Below are positions 1,481-33,395 of a DNA stretch of 41,672 bases, in pieces. This stretch comes from a bacterium. Lineage in GTDB: Bacteria; Patescibacteriota; Minisyncoccia; Phycocordibacterales; Phycocordibacteraceae. The stretch covers positions 1-41,672 of the forward strand of contig JAJYQV010000001.1 of the NCBI GenBank assembly GCA_021794425.1, read 5' to 3'. Each line of letters opens with the position of its first letter. Within the stretch, counting starts at the first letter, position 1. A program made the translations under genes and the position numbers. A model generated the notes under the pieces. The model was not told the origin of the DNA. It made no database searches and worked only from the letters and a program-made list of their open reading frames with translations.

Positions 1481-2197
1481 ATGACAGTACGTATTGACCC
1501 ATCCTGGAAAGCGCGCCTCGCCCCGGAATTCGAGAAGCCGTACTTCAAAGAGCTCACCGAGTTCGTGAAGCAGGAGTACAAGAGCGAGCCGGTGTATCCG
1601 GCGCCGGGAAATATTTTCCGAGCATTCGACCTGTGCCCGTTCGACAAGGTGAAAGTCGTCATACTCGGCCAGGACCCGTACCATGGGCCGGGGCAGGCGA
1701 ACGGGCTCTGCTTTGCGGTCTCCGACGGCGTCGCGCTCCCGCCCTCGCTCCAGAACATCTTCAAAGAGATCGAGAGCGACCTCTGTAGAAGTCGAACTTC
1801 TACAGAATCAGCAGAGCCGTGCTGTAGAAGTTCGACTTCTACAGTGCACCGCTCGGGCGACCTCGCGCGGTGGGCAGAGCAGGGCGTGCTGCTCTTGAAC
1901 GCGACCCTCACCGTCCGCGCACGCCTGGCAGGGAGCCACCAAGGGAAGGGCTGGGAGGGGTTCACCGATGCGGCCATAAAAGCGCTCTCGGACGAACGCG
2001 AGCACCTCGTTTTTATACTTTGGGGCAACTATGCAAAAGCAAAAGGCGCGCACATAGACCGCACGAAGCACCTCGTCATAGAGTCGCCACACCCCTCGCC
2101 GTTCTCTGCCGCCTCCGGCTTCTTCGGCTCCAAACCTTTCAGCAAGACAAACGACTATCTCATCGCGCACGGCCAAACCCCGATTGATTGGCTCTAG
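1481..2197 (+). CDS. ung: Family 1 uracil-DNA glycosylase carrying an in-frame palindromic insertion
   Basis: GQDPYH, PPSLQNIFKE, GVLLLN and HPSP motifs. Extra segment CRSRTSTESAEPCCRSSTSTVHR is encoded by two palindromes. Confidence 0.95.
   Translation: MTVRIDPSWKARLAPEFEKPYFKELTEFVKQEYKSEPVYPAPGNIFRAFDLCPFDKVKVVILGQDPYHGPGQANGLCFAVSDGVALPPSLQNIFKEIESDLCRSRTSTESAEPCCRSSTSTVHRSGDLARWAEQGVLLLNATLTVRARLAGSHQGKGWEGFTDAAIKALSDEREHLVFILWGNYAKAKGAHIDRTKHLVIESPHPSPFSAASGFFGSKPFSKTNDYLIAHGQTPIDWL
1782..1844. repeat. Inverted doublet of TAGAAGT-NNN-ACTTCTA palindromes inside ung
   Basis: 1782-1806 tctgtagaagt-cga-acttctacaga and 1822-1844 ctgtagaagt-tcg-acttctacag. The second is the exact reverse complement of the 23-nt core of the first. 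Confidence 0.92.
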
Positions 2198-2212
2198 GCA
2201 CCGTGGTATTGT
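2184..2212 (+). promoter_or_regulatory. Sigma70-type promoter overlapping the ung 3' end
   Basis: TTGATT-17 nt-TATTGT with extended TG. A near-identical copy is at 2926-2954. Confidence 0.55.
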
Positions 2213-2257
2213 CCAACTCGGAACAACCCATAACGCTTGTTAAAGAAGGAGGTTCGA

Positions 2258-2863
2258 ATGAATGACCTTGTAGATCTTTTCCTCTTGGGAGGATTGCTGG
2301 CATTTATTGCAATCCTCATTCGTCGGGCGCGCGCCAAACGGTACGCTGCTAGGCAGGCTGCTCTCGGGAAAGACTTGCGCGCGCGCCGAAAATCCTTCCG
2401 TCGGAACGAAATCGTGTGCGCCATCATCGATAGTGTCTACTTCGAATTGTACGGGGACGACACTGTTATTGTTGGCTCACACGAAGACGCAGCGTGGCTG
2501 GCCTCGGTGATATCTCTCTTCAAACCAGGGGAGGTCGTTGAACTTCGACGCGCCGTGCACGAGACTATCTGCAGCACCGGCCGCGAAGCGTATGAGTGGC
2601 ACATGAAAAATCCGTCACTTAACTATCCCGACCACTCGATCTCGCCTCCAGCACTTGGCTACGCCATCAAGCACGGCAAGCTCACGCCGGAGGAAGTCGC
2701 GGCTATCCGCTTCGACCACGGCGAAACGGCGGAGGAGTATGTGGTGATGGCTGACAGGCTCCTCGACAAGGTCATGGCGCAGCTTAAGGCCGGCACAGCG
2801 TACATCGATTGGACGCGCTTTCAAGACATGGAAGAGCCGGAGGAGTGTTTCGATAATCACTGA
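2258..2863 (+). CDS. Hypothetical protein with N-terminal membrane anchor (paralog A)
   Basis: AAGGAGG SD, hydrophobic N-terminus followed by a basic stretch, motifs shared with 3034-3624. Confidence 0.75.
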   Translation: MNDLVDLFLLGGLLAFIAILIRRARAKRYAARQAALGKDLRARRKSFRRNEIVCAIIDSVYFELYGDDTVIVGSHEDAAWLASVISLFKPGEVVELRRAVHETICSTGREAYEWHMKNPSLNYPDHSISPPALGYAIKHGKLTPEEVAAIRFDHGETAEEYVVMADRLLDKVMAQLKAGTAYIDWTRFQDMEEPEECFDNH

Positions 2864-2883
2864 CACTCAAATTTTGTTCCCTT

Positions 2884-2912
2884 AAGGGTCGCGCGAGCGA
2901 TCCTTTTGTTTT
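2884..2912 (+). terminator. Intrinsic terminator
   Basis: aagggtcgc-gcga-gcgatcctt followed by ttgtttt. Confidence 0.65.
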
Positions 2913-31258: not shown

Positions 31259-31315
31259 GAGCCCCGCATCAATCACCCCGCAATAAAACGCGGGGTGTGT
31301 TATTTTATAAGCTAT

Positions 31316-32644
31316 ATGGAACGAATACTGATAGGGGAGCTCGGACAGCGCGTGGGAGAAACGGTCTTCATTTCCGGCTCGGTCGACGTGCGCCGAGATC
31401 AGGGGAAGATGGTCTTTTTCGATTTTCGCGATCGCACGGGCACGGTGCAAGGCGTCTGTCTTCCAGGTTCCGACGCGCTCGCGGTCGCCAAAGAGACCGG
31501 CAAAGAATTCGTCGTCCGGGCCGAAGGCATCGTGAACAAGCGCCCCGATAAGAACGTCATCGCGGACAAACAGAATGGCGACATCGAGCTTGAAATCACC
31601 ACTCTTGATGTGCTCGCCCGCGCCGAACCGCTGCCATTTGATACCGATGCCGACATCAATCTCGACACCCTCCTCGACTATCGCCCGTTCACCGTACGCC
31701 GTCCGCGGGAGCAGCTCGTCTTCAAGACGCAGGCCGAGATCGTCGCGGGTTTCCGCGAATACCTGGACAGCCAAGGCTTCACCGAGTTCCAGGCGCCCAA
31801 GCTCGTAGGCGACGACGCCGAGGGAGGTGCGGGCGTATTCAAGGTCGAGTACTTCAAGGACCGGAGCGCCTACCTCGCCACTTCGCCTCAGCTCTACAAG
31901 CAGATGATGGTCGGCGCGTTCGAGCGCGTGTATACTACCGGTCCGCAGTTCCGTGCCGAAAAGCACGCCACCACCCGCCATCTAAACGAGCTCACCATGC
32001 TCGATTTTGAGATGGGTTTTATCAAGGATCACGCCGACGTGATGGTCATGGTCGAGGGCGCGCTCAAGCACATCACGAAGCGCCTCGGCGAAAAACTTCC
32101 GGAGCAAGTTCCGCTCCCGCAAATCCCCGAGGCCTTCCCGGTAGTGAAGCTCCGCGAGGCGCAGGAGATCCTCGGCGTCTCCACCGACGAGCCCGACCTC
32201 GAGCCCGAGCACGAACGCGCGCTTTGCGAATGGGCGCTGAAAGAAAAGGGGAGCGACTTCATCTTCGTCACCCACTACCCGGTCTCCAAGCGCCCGTTCT
32301 ACACGCTGGAAGACGAGAGTGACCCAGGTATGACCAAGAGCTTCGACCTTCTCTTCCGCGGTGTCGAGATCCTCTCGGGCAGCCAGAGAGTCCACGATCA
32401 CGATACGCTCGTGGAGAAGATCCGCGGGAAAGGCCTCGACCCGGAGAAGTTCTCTTTCTACCTCATGGCCTTCAAGTACGGTCTCCCGCCGCACGGCGGC
32501 ATCGGCATGGGGCTTGAGCGCCTCACACAGAAGTTCCTTCGGCTCGAGAACGTGAAAGAAGCAACCCTTTTCCCGCGCGACATGAACCGCATCGACGTGC
32601 TCCTCTCGAGCTCCATCCCGGACGATGAACCCGACAACGACTAG
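31316..32644 (+). CDS. aspS: Aspartyl-tRNA synthetase, short archaeal or non-discriminating type
   Basis: OB-fold, YLATSPQLYKQMM, FRAEK, RHLNE, EILSGSQR, PPHGGIGMGLERL, FPRD. Confidence 0.9.
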   Translation: MERILIGELGQRVGETVFISGSVDVRRDQGKMVFFDFRDRTGTVQGVCLPGSDALAVAKETGKEFVVRAEGIVNKRPDKNVIADKQNGDIELEITTLDVLARAEPLPFDTDADINLDTLLDYRPFTVRRPREQLVFKTQAEIVAGFREYLDSQGFTEFQAPKLVGDDAEGGAGVFKVEYFKDRSAYLATSPQLYKQMMVGAFERVYTTGPQFRAEKHATTRHLNELTMLDFEMGFIKDHADVMVMVEGALKHITKRLGEKLPEQVPLPQIPEAFPVVKLREAQEILGVSTDEPDLEPEHERALCEWALKEKGSDFIFVTHYPVSKRPFYTLEDESDPGMTKSFDLLFRGVEILSGSQRVHDHDTLVEKIRGKGLDPEKFSFYLMAFKYGLPPHGGIGMGLERLTQKFLRLENVKEATLFPRDMNRIDVLLSSSIPDDEPDND

Positions 32645-33368
32645 CACGGGGTTTTCCATCCAGACCGAAGCCTACCGGGGCCCGTTCGAGCTCGTGCTCG
32701 ACCTCATCGCCGCGCGCAAGCTCCTGGTGAACGATCTCGCGCTCGCCGCGATTACCGAGGACTTTATCGCGCATGTGCGCGCGCAAGAAACCTTCCCCGT
32801 CGAAGAGACCGCGAACTTCATCGCAATCGCGGCAACCCTCCTCCTCATCAAGTCGAAGTCGCTCATCCCCGACCTCACGCTCACCGAGGAAGAGCAGGGA
32901 GACGTGGACGACCTGAAGCGTCGCCTCGAAGCCTACGAGAACGTGCGCGAAGCGGCGCGCGAGCTCGGAAGGATTTTCGGCAAGCAGCCGATGCTCCGCG
33001 CCGGCTGGCGCGCGCCCGAGCCGTTCTTCTCGCCCGCGCGCGACTTCACGCCGGAGGCGCTCGAGCAGGCGCTCGCGAAGCTCCTCGCCGCGCGCGAAGC
33101 GGTCGAAGAGCTCCCCGAAGCGCGCGTGAAGCCGCTCATCTCGATTGAAGAAGTCATGGACGATCTCGCGAAACGCGTGCGGAGCGCGGCCACTCTCTCG
33201 TTTAAGGCCTTTACCGGCGACAAGAAAGAAAAGGTCGAGATTGTCGTCTCCTTCCTCGCGCTCCTCGAGCTGGTCAAGCAGGGCGCCGTCGCCGCTGATC
33301 AGTACGAACCCCACGGCGACATCCGCATCCAGAACACCGCCACCAATGCAGTCCCGAGATACGGGTAA
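32625..33368 (+). CDS. scpA: Segregation and condensation protein A
   Basis: YRGPFELVLDLI, AATLLLIKSKSLIP, IVVSFLALLELVK. Confidence 0.93.
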   Translation: MNPTTTSTGFSIQTEAYRGPFELVLDLIAARKLLVNDLALAAITEDFIAHVRAQETFPVEETANFIAIAATLLLIKSKSLIPDLTLTEEEQGDVDDLKRRLEAYENVREAARELGRIFGKQPMLRAGWRAPEPFFSPARDFTPEALEQALAKLLAAREAVEELPEARVKPLISIEEVMDDLAKRVRSAATLSFKAFTGDKKEKVEIVVSFLALLELVKQGAVAADQYEPHGDIRIQNTATNAVPRYG

Positions 33369-33374
33369 CGAAGT

Positions 33375-33395
33375 TATAGGAATCTGATTCCTATA
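33375..33395. repeat. Palindrome variant between scpA and scpB
   Basis: tataggaat-ctg-attcctata. On the minus strand it differs from the alaS copy only by paired changes. Confidence 0.65.

Follow-up and report, generated by a model that had tools for sequence, protein, structure and literature searches.

Why should a genome of less than 0.7 Mb carry the same short, perfectly self-complementary sequence both between its genes and inside genes for housekeeping enzymes, and what keeps both arms complementary there? The question is raised by a stretch of 41,672 nucleotides (nt) from a bacterium of the Patescibacteriota (Phycocordibacteraceae; NCBI GenBank assembly GCA_021794425.1, contig JAJYQV010000001.1, positions 1 to 41,672), here called the window, in which palindromes with a loop of 3 nt recur. 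The window is contig C38 of the genome under study, G000, which comprises 687,745 bases on 45 contigs and is rated 98% complete; other contigs of G000 bear C labels, genomes of relatives are numbered from G001 and loci fetched from them bear L labels. The main palindrome of the window defines family F1, and the other palindrome families of G000 are named F2 to F8. We consider it highly probable that these palindromes are hairpins of single-stranded DNA of the repetitive extragenic palindrome (REP) type, belonging to REPtron-like modules, and that the enzyme of F1 is encoded on contig C29 by a gene resembling those for REP-associated tyrosine transposases (RAYTs). Binding, cleavage and transposition of the hairpins are predicted from the fold and motifs of the protein and from the arrangement of gene and repeats.

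The palindromes of the window and the F1 family

The core TAGAAGT-NNN-ACTTCTA occurs four times in the window (at 1786, 1825, 7016 and 15098) and in none of 100 dinucleotide-preserving shuffles of it, and its copy number is therefore far above chance. An earlier, sequence-only reading of the window had given these four copies by the starts of their outer stems (1783, 1822, 7014 and 15092), had added three variants and had proposed a REP-like system with an HUH/Y1 enzyme encoded elsewhere. All four copies are present, and their outer stems do vary whilst each stays self-complementary, as CTG/CAG, as AAACGG/CCGTTT at 15092-15120 and as TA/TA at 7014-7034. Three of the copies are intragenic, again as claimed, those at 1783 and 1822 in a uracil-DNA glycosylase gene and that at 7014 in an alanyl-tRNA synthetase gene. 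The features concerned are as follows.

1481..2197, + strand: uracil-DNA glycosylase gene, 238 amino acids (aa), Pfam PF03167, host of a doublet of F1 hairpins
1783..1805: F1 hairpin with a 10-bp stem and loop CGA; lies in frame within the uracil-DNA glycosylase gene, read CRSRTST
1822..1844: F1 hairpin, inverted, loop TCG; 16 nt past the first, read CRSSTST
7014..7034: variant palindrome with a 9-bp stem and loop CAG; lies in frame within the alanyl-tRNA synthetase gene (~6130-8048, + strand)
15092..15120: F1 core with an altered, complementary outer stem, 13 bp in total; intergenic, with a hicA-like gene on one side and the remnant of a truncated 6-phosphogluconolactonase gene on the other
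18419..18441: palindrome made imperfect by one mismatch in the stem, with loop CTG; singleton, 5 nt past a stop codon, of no family
30124..30158, + strand: intrinsic-terminator-like hairpin with a GC-rich 16-bp stem, 3-nt loop and T-rich tail; outside the repeat system
33375..33395: F2 hairpin, 9-bp stem, loop CTG; intergenic, after a gene ending at 33368, with a separate terminator at 33397-33417

The hairpins at 1783 and 1822 form a doublet like those termed REPINs (REP doublets forming hairpins). The three proposed variants had different fates. The palindrome at 33375 is a true member, of the second family, F2, whose cognate gene lies on contig C3. That at 18419 had to be dropped, being a singleton in the genome with one mismatch in its stem and a real terminator after it at 18451-18473; it is possibly a decayed copy. 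That at 30124 proved to be the inner part of the 16-bp stem at 30124-30158, the top terminator-like site in a scan that covered window positions 14500-34000, and since it fits the definition of an intrinsic terminator (GC-rich stem plus a run of T) it was removed from the family. The two family copies within the scanned range, 15092 and 33375, do not fit that definition and were not called terminator-like, and for them the contention that the palindromes lack a T tail stands; those at 1783, 1822 and 7014 fall before the start of the scanned range. The suggested restriction of loops to CGA/TCG or CAG/CTG is true of the window, and elsewhere in the genome there are families with CCG/CGG or with a loop of 5 nt.

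Genome-wide the exact F1 core occurs 20 times; when up to four mismatches to the 23-nt unit are allowed, the number of copies is 21, spread over 9 contigs. In the 5' to 3' direction the unit consists of CT, GTAG, a 4-bp inner stem, the 3-nt loop, then the complementary arm, with CTAC at its end, and lastly AG. When the 19 consensus copies are brought into a common orientation their central 19 nt are identical throughout and the GTAG/CTAC foot is present in every one; the outer CT and AG are kept in 14-17 of the 19, with CT directly before GTAG in 14-16, and beyond them there is only a weak T/A preference. The corresponding foot of F3 is GTGG/CCAC, and F2 (ATAG) and F4 (GTGC) deviate. Five adjacent pairs of F1 copies (on C4, C19, C23, C29 and C38) have spacers of 3-48 nt and are always in opposite orientation. 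The genome has 152 perfect stems of at least 9 bp that enclose a 3-nt loop, compared with 1-5 in three first-order Markov simulations of it; many of the 152 are GC-rich terminator-like hairpins, and several AT-richer families stand out. Perfect GC-rich hairpins with a 3-nt loop, often GAA/TTC, are numerous throughout the genome and are apparently the usual form of terminator here.

The coding status of each F1 copy was judged by listing the frames that span it, followed by a Pfam scan or a comparison with relatives. Of the 21 copies, 10 lie in frame in genes, 10 are intergenic and one is ambiguous, distributed as follows.

In frame: TsaD, 2; leucyl-tRNA synthetase (LeuRS), 1; enolase, 2; uracil-DNA glycosylase (UDG; window), 2; alanyl-tRNA synthetase (AlaRS; window), 1 variant; a conserved 236-aa protein on C15, 1; the RAYT-like gene itself, 1
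Intergenic: C1; C22; C23, 2 upstream of a 5'-3' exonuclease gene; C29, 5; window 15092
Ambiguous: C5:1594, where the long frame has stops in relatives

Two further cases were considered as intragenic and rejected. The pair on C23 is upstream of the start of the 5'-3' exonuclease domain. The window copy, taken at 15095 as an intragenic or frame-breaking insertion in 6-phosphogluconolactonase, adjoins what is an N-terminally truncated remnant of that gene behind a hicAB-like pair. At this place (window 14481-15420) two open reading frames (ORFs), putatively hicB-like and hicA-like by their protein patterns, directly precede the remnant, which matches Pfam profile positions 106-181 only, and the F1 copy at 15092 lies at the junction.

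Read on either strand, the F1 unit has two open frames (CRS[RS]TST and VEV[ER]LLQ) and a TAG in the third; the copy inside the RAYT-like gene on C29 is read in this third frame, where TGG replaces the TAG. Genes also contain hairpins of other families: F3 in UvrC (as a doublet) and TsaD; F6 in LeuRS, UvrB (a variant), tRNA-guanine transglycosylase (TGT), RecG and the end of phenylalanyl-tRNA synthetase (PheRS)-alpha; and F7 in RecG, MiaA (with one mismatch) and DNA polymerase III delta'. In recG of G000 (C40:15648-15726, L268) the F7 and F6 hairpins lie between the wedge and helicase domains, and the first 330 nt past helicase motif I hold no perfect stem of 6 bp or more with a loop of 3-5 nt.

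RAYT-like genes and their hairpins

The sequence-only reading was right that no HUH/Y1 enzyme is encoded in the window, and right in looking for one elsewhere. Pfam Y1_Tnp (PF01797) has seven matches in the genome, namely five proteins of 222-238 aa, with scores above the Pfam cut-off, one genuine IS200/IS605 transposase of 142 aa (C23:6640-7068), which scores 120 bits with NCBIfam NF033573, and one truncated copy (C15:10631-10870). One of the five, a 238-aa RAYT-like Y1/HUH protein encoded at C29:13393-14109, is the candidate enzyme of F1, its gene being bracketed by five F1 copies. Two full copies and one partial copy lie past the stop codon, which one F1 copy abuts, and three lie before the start, all within ~800 nt; an altered sixth copy is in frame inside the gene at C29:13919, where it is read LWKSDFYS, and 6 of the 21 F1 copies are thus at this locus, five bracketing the gene and one within it. 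A CRISPR (clustered regularly interspaced short palindromic repeats) array was considered for C29 on account of the spacings of 71-78 nt and rejected; the orientations alternate and the Y1 gene lies between the copies. Partial copies, comprising one arm and part of the loop, adjoin full copies at C29:13355-13368 and C22:1186-1240, and in the enolase gene of G011 (L086) a full copy stands between duplicated arms; in all of these the breaks are in or beside the loop.

All five RAYT-like genes of G000 have a palindrome of their own on both sides. The families assigned to the remaining genes are these.

F2: cognate gene C3:1331-2041; 3 copies, including window 33375
F3: cognate gene on C43; 5 copies
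F4: cognate gene on C43; 2 copies, at the gene flanks only
F5, with a 5-nt loop: cognate gene on C13; 3 copies, all at the gene

F6, F7 and F8 are further families without a located gene.

An alignment of 28 members of the protein family has H13, R17, D30, N89, H90, H92, N119, G126, F129, Y150, N155 and S185 invariant. These include the HUH motif (N89-H90-x-H92) and the tyrosine Y150, which stands in a Y motif of the form Y-x-x-V-K-N or YIHRNP. A sequence search of the PDB with the single C29 protein gave chance-level matches only and a profile search gave a weak match to ISDra2 (E 0.078), and a fold search was therefore needed. An AlphaFold model of the C29 protein built from the 28-sequence alignment (mean pLDDT 88.9) has as its best PDB match 4er8_A, the Escherichia coli RAYT bound to a REP hairpin (E 1.3e-5, TM-score 0.61 on the target), followed by the IS608, ISDra2 and IS200 transposases. 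The fold, the F1 copies around the C29 gene and the assignment of the palindrome at 33375 to the gene on C3 together support the proposal of a REP-like system with its HUH/Y1 enzyme encoded elsewhere. Close relatives of the protein carry the public names 'transposase [Patescibacteria group bacterium]' and, once, 'REP element-mobilizing transposase RayT'.

The association of gene and hairpin extends well beyond G000. Relatives of the C29 protein occur in 28 of 40 genomes of the same genus, with 1-10 per genome, and 94 of the 301 genomes of a phylum sample have a profile match at E 1e-10 or better. The comparison covers 93 loci from 29 genomes, in which a profile of the family alignment served to locate the genes; 87 loci were counted as complete, six partial or low-scoring ones being left out. 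Taking as a flank palindrome any perfect palindrome within 70 nt of the RAYT-like gene, the same palindrome is found on both sides at 56 of the 87 complete loci, a palindrome on one side only or different palindromes at 22, and none at 9. The 87 loci have 68 distinct 7-nt stem keys among them. The in-gene copy, too, has a counterpart, in that the C29 gene and its 64%-identical orthologue in G006 both hold one 168 nt from the start, each resembling the flank hairpin of its own genome. Of 21 hairpins in the same housekeeping-gene loops of other genomes, 7 match a stem that flanks a RAYT-like gene of the genome in question, a lower bound since the RAYT-like genes of relatives were fetched only in part; for flanks in other genomes the figure is 19 of 567 genome pairs. 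At the level of sequence comparison, hairpin and putative enzyme are shown to change together, giving each species a family of its own.

The mechanism that we propose is as follows. The enzyme would bind the folded hairpin on single-stranded DNA and nick the strand beside it by means of Tyr150, probably at the conserved CT next to GTAG. Rejoining of the strand elsewhere would allow the hairpin to spread without the gene, either singly or as inverted doublets. In so gene-dense a genome, only short spacers and tolerant loops of proteins would let copies survive; in the loops, two of the three frames of either strand are open.

Orthologous sites, populations and competing explanations

The F1 core is found in none of 24 genomes of the same genus, and in one of 16 genomes of the same order, once and with another loop. 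The sequence-only reading had asked for occupied and empty sites to be compared in relatives, and empty sites are common. In G000 the UDG has 238 aa as compared to 220-222 aa (660-666 nt) in the matches listed for most relatives; the orthologue alignment places a net insertion of 16 aa in a variable loop, where the two hairpins and their spacer contribute 21 residues and the closest orthologue has a short loop. The UDGs of G006, G001 and G009 (L029, L031 and L040) have in this same loop a common 8-aa insert with no obvious palindrome, perhaps what is left of an older hairpin after decay. For enolase, TsaD, LeuRS and AlaRS the site is empty in many genomes, and in others it holds different perfect palindromes with a 3-nt loop. 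Counting as occupied any site with a perfect stem of at least 7 bp, and leaving G000 out, the sites of G000 are occupied as follows.

UDG: 2 of 29 genomes
Enolase: 1 of 12 genomes
TsaD: 9 of 29 genomes
LeuRS: 3 of 27 genomes
AlaRS: 3 of 29 genomes

There are 21 hairpins in 6,963 nt of these loop windows compared with 34 in the remaining 102,672 nt of the gene segments concerned, a comparison that measures co-occurrence rather than a genome-wide rate, the windows having been chosen because G000 is occupied there. In AlaRS, G000 (7014-7034) and G011 (L182) have 21-nt palindromes with 9-bp stems at identical codons, alike in outer stem and loop and different in the inner stem. Neither causes a net length change relative to empty orthologues, and from the aligned sequences this site looks like replacement rather than simple insertion. 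In TsaD of G014, G005 and G023 (L110, L111 and L112) the outer stem is common, whilst the inner stem and loop differ on both arms and the palindromes remain perfect.

The same codon positions thus hold different, species-specific perfect palindromes, often matching the RAYT-flank hairpin of their own genome. On this basis we suggest, tentatively and with more doubt than confidence, that loops of essential proteins (TsaD, LeuRS, AlaRS, UDG and enolase) are long-lived landing pads for REP hairpins in this lineage. If so, either insertion or replacement is targeted to hairpins (REP into REP), or arm-to-arm correction rewrites old copies in step with the specificity of the enzyme, and the sequence of core proteins in ultra-small bacteria would in part be set continually by a mobile repeat. 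This recurrent pattern is the part of the system most worth following. That the same loops are occupied again and again provides a natural test of insertion tolerance in essential enzymes, and of the co-evolution of a transposase with its target hairpin; for practical purposes, annotators may mistake such insertions for sequencing errors or odd protein domains, and the hairpins are usable as a strain-level marker.

Population data came from Logan contigs, which are assembled sequences and not raw reads, of four runs of one study that contain the glycosylase stretch. The glycosylase site is spanned by contigs of three runs, and the AlaRS and 15092 sites by those of two or three, always with the hairpins present. 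The sole polymorphism is a 15-nt in-frame tandem duplication (window 1833-1848) in a contig of run X2, which starts in the loop of the 1822 hairpin and represents strain-level length variation at a hairpin.

Of the competing explanations the most serious, which we nonetheless regard as improbable, is that hairpin, gene and hairpin form an autonomous IS200/IS605-like insertion sequence (IS), the solo hairpins being excision scars or derivatives akin to miniature inverted-repeat transposable elements (MITEs) or palindrome-associated transposable elements (PATEs). A hairpin at each end within 70 nt of the gene resembles subterminal IS ends, yet the left and right hairpins are the same sequence and not distinct ends. 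A genuine IS200 transposase is present in the genome, but elements of the IS200/IS605 group are recognised by a TnpA of ~130-155 aa, near-identical copies, distinct ends and often tnpB, a description that the RAYT-like genes do not fit: their proteins have 231-238 aa, the four paralogues in G000 are 29-44% identical to the C29 protein, with no near-identical duplicates, and are therefore not recent copies of one insertion sequence, and no tnpB-sized ORF lies beside the C29 gene. The patchy distribution in the genus noted above would suit a mobile element, as would the fact that three of the five G000 genes lack flank synteny to their closest homologues, whereas the other two (C3 and C43:22197-22913) share flanking genes with their orthologues (70% and 65% identity; G024 and G010) and have different hairpins. 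Finally, there are 21 F1 hairpins to one gene.

Still less probable, and in our judgement very unlikely, is that the palindromes serve the host as terminators, mRNA stabilisers or sites for cellular proteins, palindromy being selected for such a function and the proximity of Y1 genes being secondary. Preservation of palindromy at orthologous sites across species, with both arms changed, would be expected of such elements, but their sequence is species-specific and most orthologous sites are empty. The hairpin at 33375 and a copy on C29 do lie just past stop codons; however, 15092 and 33375 have no T tail and real terminators follow separately, and 10 of the 21 F1 copies are predicted to be translated as parts of genes, mostly housekeeping ones. 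REPs elsewhere are reported to act as RNA or DNA elements (PMC3733652). The sole match in an Rfam scan of the window is a tRNA, with no family on the hairpins. The 'protein-binding site' that the sequence-only reading had offered as an alternative gains nothing beyond binding by the transposase itself. Artefacts of assembly or library preparation (adapters or chimeric fold-backs) might account for palindromes that are perfect and recur unchanged on several contigs of a metagenome-assembled genome, but this can practically be discounted, as contigs of three samples bridge window sites with the hairpins, reading frames are preserved and related but different families show the same gene association in 28 other genomes.

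Several observations weigh against reading the palindromes as REP-type hairpins of REPtron-like modules. Extragenic location is part of the definition of a REPtron, and about half of the F1 family (10 of 21 copies) is coding. The five proteins score 20.9-31.2 bits against the NCBIfam equivalog NF047646 (REP_Tyr_transpos), for which the cut-off is 80, and we therefore term them RAYT-like rather than members of that curated family; at 231-238 aa they are also longer than the 165-aa chain of the E. coli enzyme. Copy numbers are low (21 for F1 and 2-5 for the other four families, F4 and F5 being confined to their own gene), and REP copy numbers in Stenotrophomonas maltophilia are far higher. The lack of flank synteny of three genes would fit just as well with joint movement of gene and hairpins in the manner of an insertion sequence. 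Among the bridging Logan contigs there are no empty alleles at the window sites and no precise skip of a hairpin, and a direct sign of ongoing movement is missing from the contigs of three samples.

Comparison with known REP systems

The publications compared here are represented by excerpts of their text, to which the following statements refer. PMC6006769 (Quentin, Siguier, Chandler and Fichant, 2018) describes subclass 2.4 TnpA-REP/RAYT proteins, marked by an NH[IFV]H motif, and their double-foot REPs (GT[AG]G plus its complement), as well as REPs inserted in frame in the RAYT gene. The G000 system shares with this subclass the NH[IFV]H-type HUH motif, the 5' GT[AG]G and 3' C[TC]AC feet, the flanking REPs and the in-gene REP. 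Unlike subclass 2.4, for which the table in PMC6006769 gives 194 (read as a length in aa), the proteins here have 231-238 aa with a helical C-terminal part; their Y motif reads Y-x-x-V-K-N or YIHRNP, that of the subclass YIxNNP. The host here belongs to the Patescibacteria, and PMC6006769 contains no mention of Parcubacteria, candidate phyla, Patescibacteria or Candidatus. Judged by the published description of motifs and REPs, the system most resembles subclass 2.4 and would work like a REPtron.

The REP of Stenotrophomonas in PMC8266576 (Corneloup et al., 2021) has 23 nt, a perfect 8-bp stem and a 3-nt loop and is cut at CT, and GTAG is implicated in the choice of cleavage site. The F1 unit is like that of the group 3 REPtron of S. 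maltophilia in its 23 nt, its perfect short stem, its 3-nt loop, GTAG and CT, the last being the cleavage site there. The two differ in that GTAG is an unpaired 5' tag to an 8-bp stem in S. maltophilia, whereas here it pairs with CTAC within a 10-bp stem and the cut site is predicted.

Intragenic REPs tagged with GTAG/CGTC, often dimers that encode 20-30 aa and many of them in repair genes and tRNA synthetases, were described by Di Nocera et al. (2013; PMC3733652), who in one instance report a site common to two Xanthomonas species. Like these REPs and the Rickettsia palindromic elements, the hairpins studied here lie in frame, often as dimers (~20 aa), in repair and tRNA-related genes (UDG, UvrB, UvrC, RecG, polymerase III delta', LeuRS, AlaRS, PheRS, TsaD, TGT and MiaA). 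Unlike the elements of PMC3733652, about half of the family is intragenic here, and one loop holds different families in several species. The five F1 doublets are like REPINs (Bertels and Rainey, 2011; PMC3116915) in being inverted pairs of two REPs with a short spacer, and unlike them in that the spacer varies from 3 to 48 nt and each unit alone is a perfect hairpin. A single-copy gene with flanking repeats is given as the RAYT signature in PMC5581495.

The literature already contains double-foot REPs as well as REPs within genes, those for RAYTs included. Our literature search on RAYT/REP systems or in-frame palindromic insertions in Patescibacteria or the candidate phyla radiation yielded no relevant paper, the one co-mention being of an archaeal gene. 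Not found in print were the occurrence of such systems in Patescibacteria, five of them in a genome of less than 0.7 Mb, a family that is half coding, and the reuse of the same loops by different families. Most known REP/RAYT systems are those of Proteobacteria, Cyanobacteria and Bacteroidetes with genomes of ordinary size; here, by contrast, five systems occur in a genome of 0.69 Mb, and half of the main family would be translated in enzymes of repair and tRNA handling.

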